Below, piece after piece: positions 2,574 through 14,999 of a DNA stretch of 64,000 bases. The stretch's first letter is position 1. The number at the start of each line of letters is the position of its first letter. A model generated the notes under the pieces. That model saw only the letters and a list, made by a program, of their open reading frames with translations. It had not been told where the DNA came from and did not search any database. A program made the position numbers and the translations under genes. The DNA lies in the NCBI GenBank assembly GCA_965203725.1, contig CBDBDH010000002.1:478829-542828 (forward strand), read 5' to 3'. This DNA comes from Gammaproteobacteria bacterium. Its GTDB lineage: Bacteria > Pseudomonadota > Gammaproteobacteria > UBA4575.

Positions 2574-2813
2574 TCACTCGACCGCATGCAGCCCCAGCCT
2601 GTCCAGCATGCGGTTCAGCGCGTTGTACAGTTCCAGGTGGGTATGCCGTCCCCCGGCGTTCGGCGTGATCGAGGTGTACCCGTCGAGCGCCCCGAAGAGC
2701 TGCAGATGGATGGTGCCGTGTGCGCCGCGCCAGACGGCCCCCTCGAAGTGCACCCGTTCGCCCTCGCCGGGGTCCGTGCGCTGCAAGTCCCCGGAGATCA
2801 GCGGGTCTGCCAT
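2574..2813 (-). CDS. Hypothetical protein
   Basis: 79-aa ORF (MADPLISG...) with GC-rich coding-like composition, convergent on the cytochrome b gene. Confidence 0.4.
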   Translation of the reverse strand: MADPLISGDLQRTDPGEGERVHFEGAVWRGAHGTIHLQLFGALDGYTSITPNAGGRHTHLELYNALNRMLDRLGLHAVE

Positions 2814-3205
2814 CGCTCGTACTCGCACTCAGTCAATCCGAAGGGGGTTGGTTTCCCAGGCCGATTAGCATCCTGAGAGGAAGTACGGGCCAGCAAATGA
2901 AGCCATCCAAAGGAGAATTTCATGAATTTCGCATCACCGGCCCGGACTTCAACCTGATGGATGCCGGGGACAGGCCCAAATTGAAGTCTATAAGGGTGCT
3001 TTGGAGAACACTACAATCAGGTTTGCCTCCAGCATCCATGCCCTCAATCTAGCAAAGAACGAGGATGTTTACAATTCTGTGATTTTCTTGGATAATCCCG
3101 CCTTAGTAGCAAACTAGGCTTTAGCAGTGGGTTGTTTGCTGAATAACCTTTAGGGGCAAATCAAGCATTTGTTGCTTGTAAAAATAGACAAGAAGCACTG
3201 GACAT

Positions 3206-3913
3206 TAGTTTAAGTTTGGCAACAGCCCGGCGCTATAGCCGGAAATCTTCAACAGACTAAATAGAGGAATGGGAGCGAACTATGCGAAGTTTTCCAAGTA
3301 AAGTGGCCACAGTACTTTTGATGGCTATGGCATTGATCATGTTTGGCTGTGGTGGCGGCGGCGGTTCGTCTTCAACTTCACCAGATGATTCTGATCCGAA
3401 ACCAACACCACTATCGGGTATCGATCAGTTTAAAGTAGAACAGTACCAAGAGGAGGCGAAGGAGGCCAAGGAAGCTGCCATGGTCGACGCCAACATGGCC
3501 CGCTCCAAGGCGACGATGGCCCGGGCGGAGGCAACAAAGGCAAGAGAAGCCGCGTCCATGGCCAAGATGGCGCGGACGGATTACGCCGAGGCCGACATGA
3601 AGGCCACGGAAGCGGAGATGGCCGCGATGGCGGCCGAAGCTGCCGCGACGGCGGCCGAAGCTGCCGCGACGGCGGCCGAAAATGCGTACATGGCCACGAA
3701 GGCCGACGACGTGACGGTCGAGACTGCGAAAGCGGAGCGTGACAAGGCAAAGGCGGAGGCGCGCATCGCCATGGAGAAGAACAGCGGCGATGACGGCGCG
3801 GATGCCGAGTACATGGCCGCGAAAGCCGCGGCGATGGAGGCGGCCACCGCAGCCGACATGTACACGCTCGAACTGTTCAAGGTCGCGAGCGGCCAGGGCA
3901 TGAGCGACGCCGA
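3206..3913 (+). repeat. Long direct repeat, copy 1 (76-nt leader plus 5' ~630 nt of lipoprotein gene 1)
   Basis: Reads identically to 5242-5949 at offset 2036; first mismatch seen at 3914 (A) vs 5950 (G); translations identical through ...SDAEKKARI. Confidence 0.92.
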
Positions 3914-5237
3914 AAAGAAGGCCCGCATCGACTTGGTGCGTACCCTGATCCACAACTCCGGTGACCAGGAGAGAGATACCCACGTCACTGTTACCGTTGG
4001 TAAGGCCCTTACCACGCAAGCCGACGGCCAGGGCAATGCGAACAACTCGGTGGACGGCCTCTGGCGGTACAACACCAACGACAACGACCAGATCGCCAAC
4101 AACGCCTATGGAGCCCGGATCACGCACCCGATCGGCAAGGACCGCGTGTACCGCTTCGGCAAGTACAGTGCCGAGCTCCTGAGAACGCCGGACCCGGAGG
4201 CGACAACGGAACAGGCGACGCAGCGGGACCTGCAGAGCATCGGCGGCTTCACCGGCGTCGAGCTGTCCAAGGGCACGCTACACGCCCACATCTACACCGA
4301 CTACGACCCGTCCAAGCGCAAGGCGGCGATAAAGGCGGGCAACATCAGCGGCGTTCTGGCTTCCTCGGGGAGGGTGTCGGGGACGTTTGACCTCAGCGGC
4401 ACGGGCATCACGGCCCTCGCGGGGAGCAAGTTCACTGTGGATGGGGTCACCTACATGGGCACTGGCGTAACTTTCGCGTGCGCAGCGCCAGCGGACTGCT
4501 CGTACACGAGTACCGGGGCGGCTGCCACTGCAACGATCACGTCGCTCGGCAGCGGCTGGCGTGTAACCGGTTCTGCGGGTGCGGTGCCGGAGGCGGGCGA
4601 TCCCGACTACATGACCTTCGGGTACTGGCTGAATCTGGGAGGCAACAACTCGGGCGGCCAGGACGAACGCCTCGGCGCATTCGCGTCCGGCAACGCCTTC
4701 AGTTCGGTGATTGCCGATGGTGTCATGCAGGAGCTGACCGGCAATGCGACGTACCGGGGTTCGGCCGCGGGGCTTCACGGGATGACCGGGGCGAAGGAGG
4801 CGGTTCAGCCGTTCGACGCCAAGGCGGAGCTGACGGCGAAGTTCGGCACGGCAGCCGAGCTGGGCGGCCTTCAGGGCAGGATCTACGACATCAACTCCGG
4901 CGGCGAGAGGCTGACGGGGGAGCTGAGCGAGGTCACCCTGGCGTACGGTGAGATAGATACCGCAACCTCCCGGTCTCTCACCTATTACCCCACCCGGATG
5001 GGCACGCCGAAATTGGACCCCAGCCTCACCACACCGACGGCGACCTACCCGATGAATGGGTTCTGGCATGGCCGGTTCTCCGAGGCGGTTGTTGAGGGTG
5101 CCGAGGACGGCAAGAAGTACCCGACCGCGGTGATCGGCACCTTCGGGGTGAGCGGGACTTTGGACATGGGCACGACCGGCACGGACGACGACGTGGACCA
5201 CAGCCTGATTGGTGCCTTCGGGACGCACCTAGAATAA
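3282..5237 (+). CDS. Surface lipoprotein 1: lipobox, Ala-rich coiled-coil stalk, TbpB-like C-terminal beta-barrel
   Basis: Signal peptide ending LIMFG/C followed by a GGGGGSSS linker; ~150-aa Ala/Glu/Lys/Met helical region; C-terminal ATYRGSAAG...AELTAKFG...GFWHGRF...IGTFG...GAFG pattern typical of TbpB-like barrels. Confidence 0.75.
   Translation: MRSFPSKVATVLLMAMALIMFGCGGGGGSSSTSPDDSDPKPTPLSGIDQFKVEQYQEEAKEAKEAAMVDANMARSKATMARAEATKAREAASMAKMARTDYAEADMKATEAEMAAMAAEAAATAAEAAATAAENAYMATKADDVTVETAKAERDKAKAEARIAMEKNSGDDGADAEYMAAKAAAMEAATAADMYTLELFKVASGQGMSDAEKKARIDLVRTLIHNSGDQERDTHVTVTVGKALTTQADGQGNANNSVDGLWRYNTNDNDQIANNAYGARITHPIGKDRVYRFGKYSAELLRTPDPEATTEQATQRDLQSIGGFTGVELSKGTLHAHIYTDYDPSKRKAAIKAGNISGVLASSGRVSGTFDLSGTGITALAGSKFTVDGVTYMGTGVTFACAAPADCSYTSTGAAATATITSLGSGWRVTGSAGAVPEAGDPDYMTFGYWLNLGGNNSGGQDERLGAFASGNAFSSVIADGVMQELTGNATYRGSAAGLHGMTGAKEAVQPFDAKAELTAKFGTAAELGGLQGRIYDINSGGERLTGELSEVTLAYGEIDTATSRSLTYYPTRMGTPKLDPSLTTPTATYPMNGFWHGRFSEAVVEGAEDGKKYPTAVIGTFGVSGTLDMGTTGTDDDVDHSLIGAFGTHLE
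3630..3680 (+). repeat. 21-bp in-frame tandem repeat (AAEAAAT) in the stalk; also present in gene 2 at +2036
   Basis: gcggccgaagctgccgcgacg x2 plus partial gcggccgaa. Confidence 0.85.
4170..4549 (+). repeat. Second identical block shared by the two lipoprotein genes, copy 1
   Basis: Compared line by line with 6233-6612 (offset 2063); no mismatch found until 4550 (C) vs 6613 (T). Confidence 0.9.
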
Positions 5238-5241
5238 ATGG

Positions 5242-5949
5242 TAGTTTAAGTTTGGCAACAGCCCGGCGCTATAGCCGGAAATCTTCAACAGACTAAATAG
5301 AGGAATGGGAGCGAACTATGCGAAGTTTTCCAAGTAAAGTGGCCACAGTACTTTTGATGGCTATGGCATTGATCATGTTTGGCTGTGGTGGCGGCGGCGG
5401 TTCGTCTTCAACTTCACCAGATGATTCTGATCCGAAACCAACACCACTATCGGGTATCGATCAGTTTAAAGTAGAACAGTACCAAGAGGAGGCGAAGGAG
5501 GCCAAGGAAGCTGCCATGGTCGACGCCAACATGGCCCGCTCCAAGGCGACGATGGCCCGGGCGGAGGCAACAAAGGCAAGAGAAGCCGCGTCCATGGCCA
5601 AGATGGCGCGGACGGATTACGCCGAGGCCGACATGAAGGCCACGGAAGCGGAGATGGCCGCGATGGCGGCCGAAGCTGCCGCGACGGCGGCCGAAGCTGC
5701 CGCGACGGCGGCCGAAAATGCGTACATGGCCACGAAGGCCGACGACGTGACGGTCGAGACTGCGAAAGCGGAGCGTGACAAGGCAAAGGCGGAGGCGCGC
5801 ATCGCCATGGAGAAGAACAGCGGCGATGACGGCGCGGATGCCGAGTACATGGCCGCGAAAGCCGCGGCGATGGAGGCGGCCACCGCAGCCGACATGTACA
5901 CGCTCGAACTGTTCAAGGTCGCGAGCGGCCAGGGCATGAGCGACGCCGA
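5242..5949 (+). repeat. Long direct repeat, copy 2
   Basis: Begins 4 nt after the gene 1 stop; matches 3206-3913. Confidence 0.92.
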
Positions 5950-7312
5950 GAAGAAGGCTCGCATCACGACCGTGGAGGGGTGGATCAAGAATGCCCGTGG
6001 TGACACCGGTAACGACCAGTTTGGGGCCGCTGGAGCCGGCGCCAGCGGAGCGAGAGCCTTTACCGTGGCCCCCGCCGGGGACGGCACGGGCACTCAGGAC
6101 AACTCGATCAGCGGCCAGATCCAAGTCGATTCCGATGGCAACGATCTGGTCGCGCAGGTTGGCGGGGTCTGGGGAGCCGTGGTCCAGCACCCGATCGGCA
6201 AGGACCGCGTGTACCGCTTCGGTACATACACCGCCGAGCTCCTGAGAACGCCGGACCCGGAGGCGACAACGGAACAGGCGACGCAGCGGGACCTGCAGAG
6301 CATCGGCGGCTTCACCGGCGTCGAGCTGTCCAAGGGCACGCTACACGCCCACATCTACACCGACTACGACCCGTCCAAGCGCAAGGCGGCGATAAAGGCG
6401 GGCAACATCAGCGGCGTTCTGGCTTCCTCGGGGAGGGTGTCGGGGACGTTTGACCTCAGCGGCACGGGCATCACGGCCCTCGCGGGGAGCAAGTTCACTG
6501 TGGATGGGGTCACCTACATGGGCACTGGCGTAACTTTCGCGTGCGCAGCGCCAGCGGACTGCTCGTACACGAGTACCGGGGCGGCTGCCACTGCAACGAT
6601 CACGTCGCTCGGTAGCGGCTGGCGTGTCACCGGCACTGCGGCTGCGGTACCGGAGGCGGGCGATCCCGATTACATGACCTTCGGGTACTGGCTGAATATG
6701 GCCGATGGCGCCGGGAACGCTGAAAGACTCGGCGTATTCGCGGGTGGCAACCGTTTTGAAACCAGTGATACGGACACCACCACGCCTCTGACCGGCAAGG
6801 CGACGTACCGGGGTTCAGCCGCCGGGCTTCACGGGATGACCGGGGCGAAGCAGGCGGTCCAGCCGTTCGACGCCAAGGCGGAGCTGACGGCGGATTTCGA
6901 CACGCTTACTGATGGCACCACGCCTGCTGATGCGTTGGGCAGCGTCAAGGGCAAGATCTACGAGATCAACTCCGGCGGCACGATGCTGACGGGGGGGATG
7001 AGCCAGATCATCCTGGCGCCCGGTAACATAGACGGCGCAACCGGCCGGGGTTTCTCGAACTACCATGCGCGGATGGGCACGCCGAAGTTAGACCCCGCCG
7101 CCGGCACGGCGACCTACCCCATCAACGGGTTGTGGCAAGGCCGGCTCTCCCTCAACGCTGCGGAGAACGACGACGCTGCCAAGCGTTACCCGCTCTCGAT
7201 GACCGGCACCTTCGGGGTGAGCGGGACTTTGGACATGGGCACGGCCTCCGACATGACGGACGACGTGACCCACAGCCTGATCGGCGCCTTCGGGACGTAC
7301 CTGGAGGAATAA
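5318..7312 (+). CDS. Surface lipoprotein 2, paralog of gene 1
   Basis: Same lipobox and stalk; same barrel motifs (ATYRGSAAG, GTFGVSG, GAFG) with different intervening segments. Confidence 0.75.
   Translation: MRSFPSKVATVLLMAMALIMFGCGGGGGSSSTSPDDSDPKPTPLSGIDQFKVEQYQEEAKEAKEAAMVDANMARSKATMARAEATKAREAASMAKMARTDYAEADMKATEAEMAAMAAEAAATAAEAAATAAENAYMATKADDVTVETAKAERDKAKAEARIAMEKNSGDDGADAEYMAAKAAAMEAATAADMYTLELFKVASGQGMSDAEKKARITTVEGWIKNARGDTGNDQFGAAGAGASGARAFTVAPAGDGTGTQDNSISGQIQVDSDGNDLVAQVGGVWGAVVQHPIGKDRVYRFGTYTAELLRTPDPEATTEQATQRDLQSIGGFTGVELSKGTLHAHIYTDYDPSKRKAAIKAGNISGVLASSGRVSGTFDLSGTGITALAGSKFTVDGVTYMGTGVTFACAAPADCSYTSTGAAATATITSLGSGWRVTGTAAAVPEAGDPDYMTFGYWLNMADGAGNAERLGVFAGGNRFETSDTDTTTPLTGKATYRGSAAGLHGMTGAKQAVQPFDAKAELTADFDTLTDGTTPADALGSVKGKIYEINSGGTMLTGGMSQIILAPGNIDGATGRGFSNYHARMGTPKLDPAAGTATYPINGLWQGRLSLNAAENDDAAKRYPLSMTGTFGVSGTLDMGTASDMTDDVTHSLIGAFGTYLEE
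6233..6612 (+). repeat. Second identical block, copy 2
   Basis: Matches 4170-4549. Confidence 0.9.
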
Positions 7313-7325
7313 CTGGCTGTAAGAA

Positions 7326-7358
7326 CAAGGGGGCGTTTGTATGATTTTCGCCCCTTTG
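7326..7358 (+). terminator. Hairpin downstream of the lipoprotein pair
   Basis: caagggggcg...cgcccctttg, 10-bp stem with one G-U pair, 13 nt after the stop. Confidence 0.55.
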
Positions 7359-7404
7359 CAGTGAGTAATCGAAGCTCCCAAATTTCGTTCGCTCACGAAA
7401 ACCG

Positions 7405-7438
7405 GGGCAGGTTCTACGGGCCTGCCCTATCTTTTTTG
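7405..7438 (+). terminator. Rho-independent terminator-like hairpin
   Basis: gggcagg-ttctacggg-cctgccc followed by tatctttttt. Confidence 0.6.
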
Positions 7439-7542
7439 AGGAGAAGGGGCCTCCCGCCATCCGACGGGTCTTAAGTAGAGTTGACACCTTCCTTAATCGT
7501 GGCTGCCCCTGCTCCACATCGCTGATCCTGGTCCTAGCTACT

Positions 7543-7767
7543 GTGTACTACATCTATCGGATGCGTTCGGTATGCGCTGGTTCCGCCACATACATGTACA
7601 TTGCCAAAAATGCCGATATCGCCTTGCGCGAGCTGGGCAGGCAGGTTGGCCGATCACTGACTTTTCAGCACACGGACAGCGGAGTGGAATACATGATGAG
7701 CAAGAGCCGTATAGTGAGAGACGAAAATCACGAGCCCGAGTTTACGATTGAGGTTTACGCAGATTGA
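7543..7767 (+). CDS. Small hypothetical protein
   Basis: 74-aa ORF, no recognisable motif. Confidence 0.3.
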   Translation: MYYIYRMRSVCAGSATYMYIAKNADIALRELGRQVGRSLTFQHTDSGVEYMMSKSRIVRDENHEPEFTIEVYAD

Positions 7768-7914
7768 TGAGGGAGTAAGTAGCAGTATTCCACTGCCCCG
7801 AATACAAAAGCCCTGGTTTCCGGACGCTCCAAAGAGTGTCACCGCACCAGCCAGTCAGGCATGGATTTCTCAGACCCAGGCAAGTGCCGCATTTCAGGGA
7901 GTCGGCTAATGCAT

Positions 7915-8262
7915 GGACGCCAATCCCATCGGTGTAGACCGTGCCGACCATGATGATCCGACTGTTTGCAAACCCGTGCAGGGTATGCTTGTCGGTATTG
8001 CTGATCTTCGAGGCACTGGTCTTGTTGCTGGCCTGGCCCTTAACACCTACTACGATGGACTTGCCAACCAGTACGGCACGGGCTTTGAGTCTTTGATTTC
8101 CCGCGTATTGGTACTGTCACAATGTCCGCAGTAGCGTTCCTCGGGCCAGTAGATGGCCTTTGAACCACTTTATGGCTGCTGCCTCATCGGGGAACAGGTT
8201 AGCCAGCTCCAACAGGGAGATGCCTTTTCGATAGGATTTTCCGGGCACATCCCTTTGCGATC
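7915..8262 (-). pseudogene. Degenerate IS1595-family transposase
   Basis: Minus-strand fragments in shifting frames: PGKSYRKGISLLELANLFPDEAAAIKWF / AIYWPEERYCGHCDSTNTREI...PVPYW (Zn ribbon) / IVVGVKG...ISNTDKHTLHGF...TVYTDG. These are characteristic of IS1595 transposases; frameshift, stop and internal deletion present. Confidence 0.8.
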
Positions 8263-8607
8263 TGGGGCAACTGGCAGATCCGCAGGCTGGAGATCCAGGT
8301 GAGGGTGCTTCGCAGGTGGAGTGGCCAGAAAAGTTCGCTGGTCGCTGCGACTGCCGTATACTATCCCGTAGCGGCCGGGCCACCTGCTGAATAAGCTTGA
8401 AGCCGGCATGAGTTAGCTGCTCATGTCCAAGTAAACAGGCAGGGGTATCTTAGACCATGTAGATGTTTGCAATGACCCGGTCCCAAAGTTTTTGATGGTT
8501 CAGTCTTCACATTGCATTTTTGTCCCTTCGACACAGGGCACTACACCCTGGATGGAATTGTGAAATTACGCCCTGAGCACTATCGAACCCGCGTAACACT
8601 GAAAATA

Positions 8608-8629
8608 TGGGGGCAACACTAGGGGCAAC
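8608..8629 (+). repeat. Short direct repeat (GGGGCAAC x2) upstream of the att-like site, possible integrase arm-type sites
   Basis: tgggggcaac...aggggcaac followed by an AT-rich tract leading to the tRNA fragment. Confidence 0.45.
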
Positions 8630-8682
8630 TCATCTAAACCTGAATTTAAAATAATATATTTATCATAGTGTTATATGTATAC

Positions 8683-8705
8683 TTCGAATCCAATCGCGCC
8701 TACCA
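8683..8705 (+). mobile_element. Isolated tRNA 3' end (T-loop to CCA), likely tRNA-Val(GAC); att-like boundary of an integrative element
   Basis: ttcgaatccaatcgcgcctacca. It matches my recollection of the tRNA-Val(GAC) 3' end that usually precedes thrS; there is no D-arm or anticodon arm upstream. Confidence 0.7.
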
Positions 8706-9001
8706 ATAACAGAACCACATGTGGGGTCCTGTGGGATTCGCAATTTCCTATCTCAGCGACAATCCAACCCTGAACCTCTTGTCAGGAAAATAGAATCTTC
8801 TTGTATACATCACTGTCTGCATAGGTTTAGGCAGATGTCCAAGCACAGCTAGCAGGCTTGTTACTACTTTCTTCATGGTTGACGTAACTTTACGAATAGT
8901 AACTGCCAGTCATAGAATATATGGCCTTGTTTTGGAAGCGAGTACATTTCTATCTGTGGTCTCATTCCAGCGCGACAAACAATAAACTAGAGGTCACACT
9001 T

Positions 9002-10078
9002 ATGTCAGGCTATGCAAAAATCACAACGTTGATTACTCGCCTTAGAGAGATTGATATCTCTGAAAGCAGCGAACAAGCTACGAGAGAAATCATAGTTAAT
9101 CCGATGATTGCTGCACTAGGTTGGGATACCTTCAATCCGCATGAGGTAGCTCGCGAACATTCAGTGCTAGGTGGACGCGTAGACTACTGCCTTCGATCAA
9201 AGAAGAAAAACCTAGTGTTCATTGAAGTGAAACGGGTTGGCACAGATCTTGGGGACCACCAGGAACAGTTACTACGCTATGCTTTTGATGGGGGCGTACC
9301 ATCAGCAGTCCTCACTGATGGCTTGGTTTGGTGGCTCTATTTGCCAATGGCTGGTGGTAATTGGTTACAACGCCGATTCTCTGAAATTTCACTACAAAAG
9401 CAAAAACCTGCGGAAGCAGCTCAGGTATTGCATTGTTTCCTTAGCCAAGATCGACTAGAAAGTGGTGCAGCGTTGAATGAAGCCGAGCGCGTATTTAAAA
9501 GCCAAGAACTTGATCGCCAGATCCGTGCAGCTCTTAATGATGCTTGGCAACAAATACTCAACGACCCTAAAGGTTTGTTACCCGACTTGCTTTCAGAGGA
9601 AGTGGAAAAAATTTCTGGCCACAAGCCTGATGAGAGGCTAATTACAGAATTCCTACGAAAGGTATCTGAGCAACTAGACAACAAAATCCCCCAATCGTCA
9701 CCTAGCAAACCATATGACAAGGGAAAACCAAAAAATCCAACGCCTAAACAACCTAGGACCTCATTGACTAGGCTGAAGGCCTTTTGGCTAGATCGCAAAC
9801 GTCATGAAGTGAAAACTTGGAGAGGTATGTTGGTAAAACTTTGTGAAGAACTTGCCAATGAGGCGGGCCCAACCTTTGCCAAACATGTCATTGAACTGAA
9901 AGGTCGGAAACGTCCCTACTTCTCTCATTCAGAAAAAGAACTCCGAGTGCCACATCAGATCCCGGGCACCCGTCTTTATGTAGAGACCAATATTAGCGCA
10001 AGTCAAGCAAAGAGAATTGCACAATTAACTATGAGGAAAATTCGGGGTTCTGACAAAGGTTTTCGAATTGAAGCCTGA
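9002..10078 (+). CDS. Restriction-type nuclease: HsdR N-terminal (PD-(D/E)XK) domain plus C-terminal SeqA-like domain
   Basis: N-terminus E..TRE.IVNPMIAALGWD...EVAREH...RVDYCL...VFIEVKR...EQLLRYAF...AVLTDGLVWWLY; C-terminus KGRKRPYFS...PHQIPGTRLYVETNISA resembles the SeqA C-domain; low GC. Confidence 0.75.
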   Translation: MSGYAKITTLITRLREIDISESSEQATREIIVNPMIAALGWDTFNPHEVAREHSVLGGRVDYCLRSKKKNLVFIEVKRVGTDLGDHQEQLLRYAFDGGVPSAVLTDGLVWWLYLPMAGGNWLQRRFSEISLQKQKPAEAAQVLHCFLSQDRLESGAALNEAERVFKSQELDRQIRAALNDAWQQILNDPKGLLPDLLSEEVEKISGHKPDERLITEFLRKVSEQLDNKIPQSSPSKPYDKGKPKNPTPKQPRTSLTRLKAFWLDRKRHEVKTWRGMLVKLCEELANEAGPTFAKHVIELKGRKRPYFSHSEKELRVPHQIPGTRLYVETNISASQAKRIAQLTMRKIRGSDKGFRIEA

Positions 10079-10337
10079 ACAGGTATCTCCAATCCATGGG
10101 TCTTGTGAGTTGTAGTACCTTTTAGAGACGGGTTTAGGTATAGATTACGTTGAATGTCCAGGGTGTGAAGAATACTCTTGGTTTATACGTACTAAGAAAG
10201 CGCTACTTTTTTCTCACGATAGTATCTCAGTTTGATATCTTTCTTCTTATACACTACGGTGATCTGCTTTAAAGGGTCAAGAAAGGTATTTCACACCTAG
10301 ACATGGTCTGAGTGCCGAGATTAAGAAGGTTTCAAGC

Positions 10338-10646
10338 ATGAATCCAGAACTCCACATTCCAAGGGATCGCGTTGCTGCATTCTGTCGTGCGAACGGCATT
10401 GCACAGCTTGCCATCTTTGGTTCGGCCTTACGAGAGGACTTCGGTGCAGAGAGCGACATTGATGTGCTGGTCGAGTTCGCGCCTGGCTGTACGCCCGGAT
10501 TGAAGTTTTTCGGGATTGCTTCTGAGTTGTCGGATCTGTTTGGGAGAGAAGTGGATGTTCTGACACGTTCATCTGTGGAGCAGAGCCGGAACTACATTCG
10601 CCGGAAAGAAATTCTGGAGTCCGCCGAGGTCATCTATGCGGCGTGA
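10338..10646 (+). CDS. MNT minimal nucleotidyltransferase antitoxin (MntA-like)
   Basis: IFGSALREDFGAESDIDVLVEF (GS-x10-DxD); ~100 aa; overlaps the downstream HEPN gene. Confidence 0.92.
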   Translation: MNPELHIPRDRVAAFCRANGIAQLAIFGSALREDFGAESDIDVLVEFAPGCTPGLKFFGIASELSDLFGREVDVLTRSSVEQSRNYIRRKEILESAEVIYAA

Positions 10647-10980
10647 CGATGCATATCTACTTGATATGCTGGTAGCGGCACGTAAAGCAGTAACATTTAC
10701 AGAAGAACTGACTTACACGCAGTTTGTGCAGAGTGATCTGCACCAGAATGCAGTCCTTAAGGTTCTGGAGATTGTGGGCGAGGGAGCTTCGCGTGTCAGC
10801 GAAGACGCGAGAGAAACCTATTCGGAAATCTCATGGCCCCAGATCGTCGGTTTGCGCAATCGCATTGTTCATGGCTATTTTGAAATCGATTTAGAAATTG
10901 TTTGGAAAATCGTGCAGGAAGATTTGCTGCCACTGATTGCACAGCTCGAGCTCCTAGTATCCCCGGAGTCTGAGAAGTAA
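10636..10980 (+). CDS. HEPN/DUF86 RNase toxin (HepT-like)
   Basis: YLLDML...WPQIVGLRNRIVHGYFEIDLEIVW with an R-x4-H motif. Confidence 0.92.
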   Translation: MRRDDAYLLDMLVAARKAVTFTEELTYTQFVQSDLHQNAVLKVLEIVGEGASRVSEDARETYSEISWPQIVGLRNRIVHGYFEIDLEIVWKIVQEDLLPLIAQLELLVSPESEK

Positions 10981-11107
10981 AGAGAGTTGCTACTAGTCTG
11001 CGTAAACGGACCCTACCGCGTTCAAAACCCATTCACAGGTTGCTGGAGTCCCAAACTAGTTTGCTCTGTTCAACCGAGGGCCTGATAAATCGGGTCGAGG
11101 AGAAGCC

Positions 11108-11974: not shown

Positions 11975-12099
11975 TGGGCTGGTGATCCAGCCGACGCCTG
12001 GACAAGCTGTTGAATTAAAATATTTAAATCCTGCAATAGTCGAGTCGTTCAAGGATAGGCTAGAGTACCTGTAGTAGAGTATGTCAGTAAGGTTTGTAT

Positions 12100-12336
12100 A
12101 TGGCGCATCGGCTGAACATTGTGCTGGATGACGAAGTCTGGAAGTCCCTGCAGCAATTGCCCGAAGGGGTCCGCGATCGTTATATCAGTGAAGCCGTGGC
12201 CGAACGGTTGCGGCGTGAGCGAAGGCAAGAAGCTGTCCGGAAAATGGATGAGCTGCGTGAAAACCTGCCGCCGCTGGACGGTACCGTCGATATTGCAGGG
12301 ATTCTGCGCAAGGACCGGGCAAGGGATGGTGCATGA
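12100..12336 (+). CDS. Ribbon-helix-helix type antitoxin
   Basis: HRLNIVLDDEVW...RDRYISEAVAERL...; ends GILRKDR; stop overlaps an ATGA start; tagagta direct repeat at 12061 and 12075 upstream. Confidence 0.65.
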   Translation: MAHRLNIVLDDEVWKSLQQLPEGVRDRYISEAVAERLRRERRQEAVRKMDELRENLPPLDGTVDIAGILRKDRARDGA

Positions 12337-12550: not shown

Positions 12551-14458
12551 ATGCCAACCATCACCCTGCCTGACGGCACCCAGAAAGAATTTACCGACCC
12601 GGTCACGATCCAGCAGGTCGCGGAATCCATCGGCCCCGGGCTCGCCAAGGCGACCATTGCCGGGCGCATCGACGGACAGCTGGCCGATGCCTGCGTCAGC
12701 ATCACCGAGGATGCTTCCGTGGAGATCGTCACCAGCAAGGACCCGGACGGGGTCGACATCATCCGCCACTCCTTCGCCCACCTGATGGGGCATGCGATCA
12801 AGCAGCTGTACCCGACCGCCAAGATGGCGATCGGGCCGGTCATCGAGAACGGCTTCTACTACGACGTGGACTACGAGCGCTCCTTTACCCCGGAGGACCT
12901 GGAAGCCATCGAAAAACGCATGGGCGAGCTGATCGTGCAGGACTACGATGTCGTCCGCGAAGTGGTCAGCCGCGCCCAGGCGGTGGAGGCGTTCCGGGAG
13001 CGCGATGAAGACTACAAGGTCGAGATCGCCTCCGAGATTCCGGACGATGAAATCATCGCGCTCTACCACCACCAGGAATACACCGACATGTGCCGCGGCC
13101 CGCACGTGCCCAACACGCGCCACCTGCGCGCGTTCAAGCTGACCCGCCTGGCCGGCTCGTACTGGCGCGGCGATGCCAGCAACAAGATGCTGCAGCGCAT
13201 CTACGGCACGGCCTGGGCCGACAAGAAGCAGCTCAAGCACTACCTGACCCAGCTCGAGGAGGCGCAAAAGCGCGACCATCGCAAGCTCGGCAAGCAGATG
13301 GACCTGTTCCACTTCCAGGATGAGGCCCCGGGCATGGTGTTCTGGCACGAACGCGGGCTGATCCTGTACCAGCAGGTCGAATCCTACGTCCGTGAGAAGA
13401 TCCGCGCGCAGGGCTACCAGGAGGTATCCACCCCGCAGATCCTGGACCGCAAGCTGTGGGAGAAGTCAGGGCACTGGGACAAGTTCGGCGAGATGATCTT
13501 CGCCACGCAGTCAGAAAACCGCGAGTACGCGATCAAGCCGATGAACTGCCCCGGTCACGTGCAGATCTACAACCAGGGCCTGAAAAGCTACCGGGACCTG
13601 CCGTTCAAGCTCTCCGAGTTCGGCCTGGTGCACCGCAACGAACCCTCCGGCACCCTGCACGGCCTGCTGCGGGCCAGGCGTTTCGTGCAGGACGACGCCC
13701 ATGTTTTCTGCACCCGGGACCAGCTTGCCGGGGAGCTGCGCGAGCTCATCGACCTGACGTTCGAGGTCTACCGGGACTTCGGTTTCGAGAACATCGAGCT
13801 GGCCTTCTCGACCCGCCCGGAAAAGCGCGTCGGCGAGGACAGTCTCTGGGATGAGGCCGAGGCGGCGCTGCAGCAGGTGCTGGAGGCGCAGGAGCTGGAA
13901 TACAAGCTGCAGCCGGGCGAGGGCGCATTCTATGGGCCCAAGGTCGAGTTCACACTGCGCGACAGCATCGGGCGGGTGTGGCAGTGCGGCACCATCCAGG
14001 TGGATTTCTCCATGCCGGGGCGACTCGATGCCTCCTACGTGGCCGAAGACGGCTCGCGCCAGGTGCCGGTCATGATCCACCGCGCGATCCTGGGTTCGCT
14101 CGAGCGTTTCATCGGAATCCTGATCGAGAACTACGCCGGCGACCTGCCGTTCTGGCTGGCCCCCGTGCAGGCGGTTTTGCTGAATATCACGGACCGCCAG
14201 GCACAACATGTGCGCTCGGCAGAAGAAATGCTTAGGAATCAAGGCTTCAGGGTGATCTCCGACTTGAGAAATGAAAAGATTGGCTTTAAGATTCGAGAGC
14301 ATACGATCACACACATCCCGTACATGCTGGTGGCGGGCGATCGTGAAGTGGCTGCAAATCAGTTGGCCGTTCGTACTCGTGGAGGTGAAGACCTGGGCCC
14401 GATGGCACTCGAGGCCATCGCGCAGAGGTTCACGGAGCACGGGGTGGGCGGCCATTAA
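12551..14458 (+). CDS. thrS: Threonine--tRNA ligase
   Basis: [12 protein letters not shown] domain, [31 protein letters not shown]. Confidence 0.99.
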
Positions 14459-14477
14459 TTTTTAGGAGGACTGGAAT

Positions 14478-14999
14478 ATTAGCGTAGCGAAAGTAACCCG
14501 ATTGAATGAGGAAATTACCGGGCAGGAAGTCCGACTGATCGGACTGGACGGTGAGAACGTGGGCGTGGTGGACATCAGTGAAGCCCAGCAGATTGCACAG
14601 GAAGCCGAGCTTGACCTGGTAGAGATTGCCCCGAATGCCACCCCTCCCGTATGCCGGGTCATGGACTACGGCAAGTTCAAGTTTCAGCAGAGCAAGAAGG
14701 CTCAGGTAGCCAGGAAAAAGCAGAAACTGATCCATGTGAAGGAAATCAAGTTCCGCCCCGGTACGGAGGAAGGCGATTATCAGGTTAAGCTGAGAAAGAT
14801 CATCGAATTTTTAACGAACGGCGACAAGACCAAGGTGACCGTTCGCTTCCGGGGCCGGGAGATGATGCATCAGGAACTCGGCGGCGTGTTACTGGACCGC
14901 ATCGAGAAGGACCTGGAGCCCCACGGCGAAGTGGAACAACGGCCCAAAATGGAGGGACGCCAACTGGTCATGGTGTTCACTCCGCTGCGAAAAAAATGA
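14478..14999 (+). CDS. infC: Translation initiation factor IF-3, ATT start codon
   Basis: GGAGG Shine-Dalgarno then ATT AGC GTA..., in frame with RLNEEI...CRVMDYGKF...KEIKFRP. Confidence 0.97.

Follow-up and report, generated by a model that had tools for sequence, protein, structure and literature searches.

A tandem pair of lipoprotein genes resembling type 11 secretion cargo, with identical scaffold blocks and distinct heads, in a gammaproteobacterial genome

The lipoproteins served by Slam and the type 11 secretion system (T11SS) include TbpB, LbpB, HpuA, fHbp, NHBA and PmSLP (PMC5449769, PMC8406197, PMC7857515). The Pls-like T11SS cargo combines an alpha-helical repeat region with a pedestal and a barrel, and its secretion by TepS has been shown experimentally; in other T11SS cargo, function is carried by the loops (PMC12282271). 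The architecture of fHbp is modular, with variable segments of two lineages placed between invariant junctions (PMC5889710). Here we describe two adjacent lipoprotein genes on the forward strand of a 64-kb stretch of gammaproteobacterial DNA (hereafter the window, whose numbering gives all coordinates not assigned to another locus): gene 1 (3282-5237, 651 aa) and gene 2 (5318-7312, 664 aa). With a probability of roughly 0.75, we interpret them as a paralogous pair of Slam-class lipoproteins in which the scaffold is subject to concerted evolution by gene conversion and in which old, distinct heads (type A1 for gene 1, type B for gene 2) have been spread by horizontal gene transfer. To our knowledge, work on Slam/T11SS cargo has dealt almost exclusively with animal pathogens, in connection with iron piracy and complement evasion.

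The pair is built from a duplicated unit of 2036 nt with a 4-nt junction, the boundary of which (3206/5242) lies 76 nt 5' of each ATG. The leader of unit 1 (3206-3281, GC 0.46) forms the first 76 nt of the unit, that of unit 2 (5242-5317) begins 4 nt past the stop codon of gene 1, and upstream of 3206 the similarity between the units ends abruptly, with 13 of 56 bases matching. Constant block A, which includes the leader, spans 708 nt (3206-3913, equal to 5242-5949), and constant block B spans 380 nt (4170-4549, equal to 6233-6612), with 0 mismatches in either. Between these blocks lies a variable segment, V1 (residues 217-283 and 3930-4130 in gene 1; residues 217-292 and 5966-6193 in gene 2), where the stretches 3930-4110 and 5966-6172 have 33-50% nucleotide identity with indels and the V1 peptides, of 65 and 74 aa, are 28% identical. 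The C-terminal beta-barrel region follows (residues 444-650, 4611-5234, type A1 in gene 1; 6674-7309, type B in gene 2) and contains short exact islands of 27-40 nt at 4608-4634, 4770-4796, 4806-4838 and 5135-5174, the last of which is a 40-nt match to 7204-7243. A first-pass annotation of this DNA had reported two units of ~2 kb with identical blocks, a divergent 65/74-aa segment between them and a series of peptide motifs in the barrel; exact matching recovers the blocks and the divergent segment as described, and the motifs are present. The same annotation had pointed to a contrast at synonymous sites, and this too is sharp: synonymous divergence (dS, Nei-Gojobori) between the genes is 0.014 in the signal peptide and stalk, 0.64 in V1, 0.037 in the pedestal and 0.34 in the barrel, a 20-45 fold difference between variable and constant segments. 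At the ~16% divergence of the rest of the unit, the calculated chance of a 708-nt run free of differences is ~0.84^708, or ~1e-54, and uniform drift cannot produce such a mosaic of identical and divergent segments.

The prospect of further copies, also raised in the first-pass annotation, was borne out only outside the window: no third copy or fragment of the lipoprotein unit occurs within its 64 kb, but the close family comprises 24 proteins among 5.8 billion clusters, some of them in tandem arrays. One such array, on a 2.43-Mb contig of assembly ERZ25068511 (locus L011), consists of a type A gene followed by one of type B and one of type C, all three with a shared signal peptide and stalk. 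In a five-way codon alignment of these three genes with the two of the window, identity of the constant blocks is complete (100%) within the window and 95-100% within L011, and between the two genomes it falls to 28-88%. The variable blocks show the reverse, with 32-60% identity within a genome and, between genomes, 92-100% for type A and 68-93% for type B. Gene 1 accordingly matches the type A gene of L011 at 92-100% of nucleotides in V1 and barrel (98-100% over 4014-4121) and at 28-87% in signal peptide and stalk (stalk 65-87%), and the heads have a lower between-genome dS than the stalks (0.11-0.16 vs 0.65). The constant/variable pattern recurs in a pair of genes on a 9.4-Mb contig (P0018 and P0023), which are 98% identical in the stalk and 26% identical in V1.

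Phylogenies of the two kinds of segment disagree in the same way. In a tree of stalk and pedestal, the window pair forms one clade and the L011 trio another (SH-aLRT 100 each), whereas in a tree of V1 and barrel gene 1 falls within the A1 clade (SH-aLRT 100) and gene 2 is sister to the type B gene of L011. Monophyly of the window pair on V1 and barrel is rejected, at a cost of 138 log-likelihood units (approximately unbiased (AU) test, p = 3e-51), such that paralogs cluster by genome where conversion has acted and by head type where it has not. A further signature lies in the pedestal, where all other A1 proteins have 'SKQEGDHLSTVHIYTDYD' / 'SKQEGDHLSTVH' and 'PMAEDPDY', and where types B and C have 'SKGTL-AAHIYTDYD' and 'PEAGDPDY'. 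Despite its A1 head, gene 1 has the B/C form, 'SKGTL-HAHIYTDYD' and 'PEAGDPDY', identical to that of gene 2, which indicates that the 380-nt block was copied from a B gene into an A gene. At the level of sequence comparison, this demonstrates at least one intragenomic conversion, of the type-B pedestal into gene 1, whatever the older history of the pair. The first-pass annotation had proposed segmental recombination between paralogs as the source of the sharp identical/divergent pattern, and the dS contrast, the incongruent trees and the type-B pedestal patch in gene 1 jointly support that proposal. It had also supposed that conversion diversifies the exposed loops; the effect that can be demonstrated here is instead the homogenisation of the constant parts.

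Nor are the variable blocks, as judged from the aligned relatives, hypervariable, the term first applied to them; they sort into a small number of discrete head types, which are conserved from one genome to another. V1 of type A1 is found in gene 1, P0003, P0004, P0005 and P0009, type B in gene 2, P0019 and P0021 (3 of the 24 proteins), type C in P0022 and P0023, and type A2 in most other relatives, and the type of the barrel co-varies with that of V1 across genomes (A1/A1, A2/A2, C/C). Type A1 proteins of different genomes share 91-99% amino acid identity in V1 and 85-96% in the barrel. For gene 1 itself, V1 is 91-94% identical to that of P0003, P0004, P0005 and P0009, and the barrel is 85-91% identical to those of the other A1 proteins and 59% identical to that of gene 2; V1 of gene 2 shares 52-59% with P0019 and P0021. 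The stalks fall into two unrelated families, and these occur in free combination with the A1, A2, B and C heads.

Both proteins begin with MRSFPSKVATVLLMAMALIMFG followed by CGGGGGSSS, which reads as a signal peptide (3282-3350 in gene 1) with a lipobox-like end, LIMFG before Cys23, slightly atypical in its M-F-G-C, and then a Gly/Ser/Pro linker. Each relative has its own distinct signal peptide, in which the ...G/A-C motif is retained. A full-length AlphaFold2 model built from 70 homologues (mean predicted local distance difference test, pLDDT, 80; predicted template modelling score 0.71) places an Ala/Glu/Lys-rich helical bundle at residues 46-228 (3417-3965; pLDDT 90-99), with long helices folded back on one another, then a beta 'handle/pedestal' domain at residues 276-432 (4107-4577) with invariant Cys400 and Cys406, and then the barrel. 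The bundle is encoded with 21-nt (heptad) internal repeats, seen in both stalks as 7-aa AAEAAAT-like tandem repeats (3567-3685 and 5603-5721), and the relatives, of ~600-1130 aa, differ mostly in stalk length, so that repeat slippage may alter the reach of the protein. Mapping of the variable segments onto the model, as the first-pass annotation had suggested, was informative for the barrel, in which genes 1 and 2 share 71% identity in predicted strands and 51% outside them (Fisher p = 0.004), and uninformative for the poorly modelled V1. This concentration of barrel variability outside the strands resembles the situation in T11SS cargo with functional loops.

The 5' end of the genes has a separate history. 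Leader and signal peptide have a GC content of 0.46-0.48, as against 0.60-0.67 for the remainder of the gene, and show no homology to those of any close relative. They (3206-3420) are ~76% identical over 154 nt, and 68% identical in amino acids, to the 5' end of L010:7002-8609, an otherwise unrelated 535-aa barrel lipoprotein gene that is flanked by a phage terminase large subunit and an integrase in a Thiotrichales metagenome-assembled genome (MAG). Similarity of the window genes to their own family begins at about residue 50-56, at the GC shift, which suggests that the gene body was joined to a 5' module specific to the lineage.

Several observations place these proteins near Slam cargo. With a domain model of residues 276-651 (barrel pLDDT 80-95), the top three Foldseek matches in the Protein Data Bank (PDB) were PmSLP (9b3e, E 7e-4), the NHBA C-domain (6cuj, E 1e-3, TM-score on target 0.51) and fHbp (5nqz, E 3e-3), each with a probability of 1.00. 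The full-length model was uninformative in the same search, its matches being generic barrels and helical bundles; trypanosome surface receptors were among them at E 0.02-0.4, which we take as generic bundle similarity. The handle and barrel domain is represented by 233 clusters at E <= 1e-3 among 1.84 billion, and two remote barrel relatives align end to end with PF01298 (TbpB_B_D), below threshold (E 4e-4 and 7e-4). A PF04575 SlipAM (Slam) gene, usually with TPR repeats, lies directly downstream of relatives in five loci (L006, L008, L012, L013 and L016; in L006 and L008 called by tblastn), and homologues of the downstream SlipAM protein carry the NCBI name 'surface lipoprotein assembly modifier' (among the best 120 of 2204 matches). 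No Slam gene was found in the flanks of L001-5, L011 and L014/15, and the contig of the window is not among the best 120 of the 2204 Slam homologue matches, which is not decisive for the contig.

The products of genes 1 and 2 thus look like cargo of the Slam/T11SS class at the level of modelled fold. In common with known cargo they have an N-terminal lipobox, a beta handle/pedestal preceding a C-terminal 8-stranded barrel, and related loci in which Slam is directly downstream and in which, as in cluster-1 T11SS loci (PMC12282271), one Slam may accompany several cargo genes. The closest parallel in architecture alone is the Pls-like cargo, given the order of lipobox, long Ala/Glu/Lys-rich alpha-helical repeats, beta pedestal and C-terminal barrel, although the helices here are modelled as a folded-back bundle and the stalks of the relatives vary widely in length and belong to two unrelated families. 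Because this order is that of T11SS cargo, the label 'TbpB-like' given in the first-pass annotation is right for fold and secretion class, with its match to PmSLP, NHBA and fHbp and with Slam beside the relatives. It does not extend to TbpB proper: the model has a single handle and a single barrel rather than two handle-barrel lobes, and no TonB-dependent receptor partner occurs among the neighbours scanned. The window proteins depart from known cargo also in that neither they nor 10 relatives have a TbpB_B_D or lipoprotein C domain match in Pfam at E <= 1, in that the window has no Slam gene, and in their hosts, which are uncultured and apparently sponge-associated and include Nitrospirales- and Binatia-labelled contigs, whereas the literature places T11SS in Proteobacteria. 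By analogy with the described cargo, both proteins may be displayed on the surface.

Two of the loci with a Slam gene bear description in their own right. On the 9.4-Mb contig (L013:5199-19458), the Slam gene is accompanied by an A2 gene, a C gene and the gene of a third lipoprotein, 1095 aa long, whose barrel tail (…GAFGARK) is different and more TbpB-like, and a single Slam seems there to serve several unrelated cargo genes. In L016, which lies right at the beginning of a Nitrospirales-labelled contig of 3.18 Mb, the gene of a 495-aa PF04575 SlipAM protein with TPR_Slam (13022-14509, reverse strand) adjoins a tandem array of three family copies with IS30-like genes between them; this is either a Slam/T11SS outside Proteobacteria or a mis-joined contig end.

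We hypothesize that gene 1 and gene 2 would be transcribed together, that their products would be lipidated at Cys23 and that, if the genome has a Slam, it would bring them to the surface by way of the C-terminal 8-stranded barrel, the part that Slam recognises. The helical bundle and pedestal would act as a common scaffold, and V1 with the barrel loops as two alternative binding heads. Recombination between the adjacent copies, by gene conversion or unequal exchange, would keep leader, signal peptide, stalk and pedestal identical, and tracts entering the heads would presumably be purged by selection because the heads differ in function, the heads in turn staying distinct, presumably, because each binds a different ligand. 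We infer both this ligand binding and the selection that keeps the heads apart. Heads would pass between members of the community by horizontal transfer, recombining at the conserved scaffold edges, and the head lineages would predate the arrival of the genes in the window genome.

A number of results weigh against this interpretation. With regard to family, Pfam and NCBIfam name none for either protein, giving a weak TolA-like coiled-coil match alone, and a barrel-only profile searched against PDB sequences was not significant and reached no solved surface lipoprotein (a full-family profile against the same sequences was dominated by Ala-rich low-complexity matches). The Foldseek TM-scores are modest, at 0.39-0.51 on the target, and tblastn finds no Slam gene in the 64-kb window. 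In the model, V1 residues 231-272 have a pLDDT below 50, and it consequently gives no reading of V1 exposure. Type-B heads differ much more between genomes than type-A heads, at 52-69% amino acid identity, and their pairwise dN/dS is ~1.2-1.3, which is not significant, few sites being available; with such divergence, some diversifying evolution of the type-B head is possible, and no claim of positive selection is made here. Recent duplicates with full identity are common among relatives (two in L003, three in L016, two in L014/15 and three in L001/2/4), those of L016 separated by IS30-like genes and those of L014/15 in a region dense in insertion sequences (IS). Finally, an old A-B pair with homogenised constant parts is not fully separable from a recent duplication with import of a B head.

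That last history is the strongest alternative, and we consider it unlikely. Gene 1 would have undergone a recent tandem duplication of the whole unit, copy 2 would have taken up a foreign type-B segment from V1 to barrel, the B pedestal would have been copied back to gene 1, and the identical blocks would mostly be residual from the duplication and not the product of homogenisation of an old pair. The abundance of perfectly identical, very recent duplicates in the family, in L003, L016, L014/15 and the Poriferihabitaceae genome, speaks for it, as does the difference between the window unit, with its 4-nt junction, and the unit of L011, with a 650-nt spacer that contains a 107-aa open reading frame (ORF). 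The leader and signal peptide of the window are not homologous to those of L011 either, so the array was not inherited en bloc, and the lower between-genome dS of heads than of stalks is as expected if heads move horizontally. Yet the type-B pedestal in gene 1 still requires intragenomic conversion, and a duplication therefore departs from concerted evolution of an old pair in history only. Moreover, the A-then-B order is the same in L011, and since the constant/variable pattern is found in three genomes, recurrent homogenisation is the simpler fit. The L011 spacer ORF itself is divergently oriented before each of the three paralogs (9349-9672, 11985-12308 and 14646-14969, reverse strand), has one transmembrane helix and a Glu/Arg-rich coiled coil with weak LapA-like Pfam matches alone, and has no counterpart in the window. 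After the same array stands a 154-aa ORF (L011:17239-17703, forward strand) that resembles a bare barrel (GTATYSGGAVGKY...GAFGVNKE), without a signal peptide and without a Pfam match.

Cassette-based antigenic variation, as in pilE/pilS of Neisseria and vlsE/vls of Borrelia, was the analogy drawn in the first-pass annotation, and programmed antigenic or receptor variation, in which ongoing conversion would shuffle exposed loops within the population with the constant blocks as crossover anchors, is an improbable account of this locus. The likeness lies in segmental conversion between linked homologous copies with conserved flanks: recombination between the copies is real, variable barrel positions are enriched outside predicted strands, and the exact barrel islands of 27-40 nt could act as crossover points. 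The dN/dS of type-B heads points the same way. The locus, however, has no silent archive and no single expression site. Each gene is complete, with a leader, an ATG and a signal peptide of its own, and the two stand between one promoter-like site, a sigma-70-like candidate recognised by consensus match only (TTTACA-17-GATAAT, 3068-3096, in AT-richer DNA just outside the duplicated unit), and one intrinsic-terminator-like hairpin with 11 pairs and a T run 3' of gene 2 (7404-7437), which is not the layout of an expression site with silent cassettes. No promoter-like site or terminator was found between the genes, and the pair is probably co-transcribed as a bicistronic array, judging from these elements. 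Two complete, expressed-looking genes would be the only donors, with no silent or partial cassettes in the window, no phase-variable repeat in the leader and 24 proteins in the whole close family; the head types are few, discrete and conserved across genomes (A1 at 91-99% in amino acids), and because V1 and barrel types co-vary across genomes, they are not found shuffled.

Population data, in the form of Logan contigs assembled from public short-read runs (k=31 graph assembly), bear on variation and on the integrity of the sequence alike. Short-read contigs match the window exactly over 2800-3338, 5733-6216, 6405-6881 and 6924-7243; the second crosses the stalk-to-V1 junction of gene 2, and the last two reach its barrel. 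In the segments proper to gene 2 they contain no variants, contrary to what shuffling within a population would suggest. One 471-nt contig, from run X1, joins the barrel of gene 2 (6870-7243) to the tail of gene 1 and the leader of the next unit (5175-5271) through the 40-nt island, and could be taken as a chimera generated by antigenic variation, whereas the corresponding contig of run X2 stops at 7243. The join could represent a real recombinant or a third unit, or equally an artefact of the k=31 graph at a 40-nt repeat, where an artefact is expected, and it is the lone contig of its kind. Summed depths reach ~2000 at conserved barrel segments, many organisms carrying near-identical segments. 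An assembly artefact, by which consensus bleeding or collapse between diverged paralogs produced the identical blocks, could draw on this abundance in a metagenome assembly and on the extremity of zero mismatches over 708 and 380 nt, but it is very improbable given that the independent short-read contigs are exact over the informative junctions, which counts against consensus bleeding, that other long contigs (L011 and the 9.4-Mb contig) have the same architecture and that gene 1, in its type-B pedestal signature, shows a pattern that makes coherent biological sense.

The relatives of the window pair occur in distant lineages. Loci of MAGs labelled Poriferihabitaceae (Gammaproteobacteria, Arenicellales), Alphaproteobacteria, Nitrospirales and Binatia share 76-91% nucleotide identity over ~1.8-2.5 kb, and four contigs (L011, L012/13, L014/15 and L016) come from one metagenome assembly. 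A sponge genome project has reported Poriferihabitaceae MAGs (PMC12859430). Family genes are often found beside transposases, group II intron reverse transcriptases or recombinases. The proteobacterial arrays are internal to multi-Mb contigs; on the Nitrospirales- and Binatia-labelled contigs the arrays lie 0-46 kb from a contig end, and so a mis-join at repeats is possible there. The occurrence of common head types in mostly sponge-associated bacteria of several classes or phyla points to horizontal spread of the heads, and the family appears to be confined to uncultured, apparently sponge-associated bacteria. Within one Poriferihabitaceae chromosome of 4.99 Mb, 99.9% identical copies of 3.3-3.5 kb are dispersed (L001, L002 and L004, ~7070-10320 in each), each copy beside repeats of ~1.0-1.5 kb that are common to the loci and are probably IS elements.

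A bolder possibility, which we regard as rather doubtful, is that V1 and barrel heads circulate among the symbionts of a single sponge metagenome, across the Gamma- and Alphaproteobacteria and the Nitrospirales- and Binatia-labelled contigs, where they would join leaders, signal peptides and stalks already resident there, be kept in register by conversion and serve as surface 'badges' shared by the community, with T11SS extending beyond Proteobacteria. The circulating head DNA would be near-identical, at 76-91% and locally 98-100%, and the Nitrospirales-labelled contig has a Slam gene of its own. If this were true, a small set of badges would let the host or phages recognise their bearers, or let the bearers evade them. 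Our literature searches turned up no account of Slam-type lipoproteins from sponge symbionts.

As to its surroundings, the pair lies in a low-GC stretch (2880-11000, GC 0.42-0.54 vs 0.61 for the window) that is probably a genomic island. The stretch also has an HSDR_N and SeqA-like protein gene (8921-10078) and an MNT/HepT toxin-antitoxin pair (10338-10980). An ORF on the reverse strand (8117-8383) was considered as the remnant of a transposase N-terminus from a resemblance by eye and was set aside, having no Pfam match.

Among described systems, fHbp offers the nearest precedent for the mosaic, being likewise a Slam-type lipoprotein assembled from blocks in a few discrete lineages, with recombination joining them at conserved stretches. 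The mosaics of fHbp, however, are alleles of one locus that are exchanged between strains by transformation, whereas here the partners are paralogs arranged in tandem within a genome and, beyond it, homologues from other bacterial classes or phyla, and the constant parts here are identical in nucleotides within the genome. The first-pass annotation mentioned no earlier description of such variation in a TbpB-like family; in this protein class, mosaic blocks are known from fHbp alleles (PMC5889710). What is new is an unannotated cargo family without a Pfam or NCBIfam name, concerted evolution at the sub-genic scale in tandem cargo paralogs, and head types common to distant lineages with an apparent sponge association.

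These findings describe a surface-lipoprotein family in three modular layers, in which leaders and signal peptides are specific to the host, stalks are homogenised in each genome and a handful of heads are shared across distant lineages. The mosaic structure of such a pair of surface proteins need not indicate a device for antigenic variation. The locus provides a clean natural case of concerted evolution limited to sub-genic blocks and, for the sponge symbionts, a testable candidate for a common surface interface.

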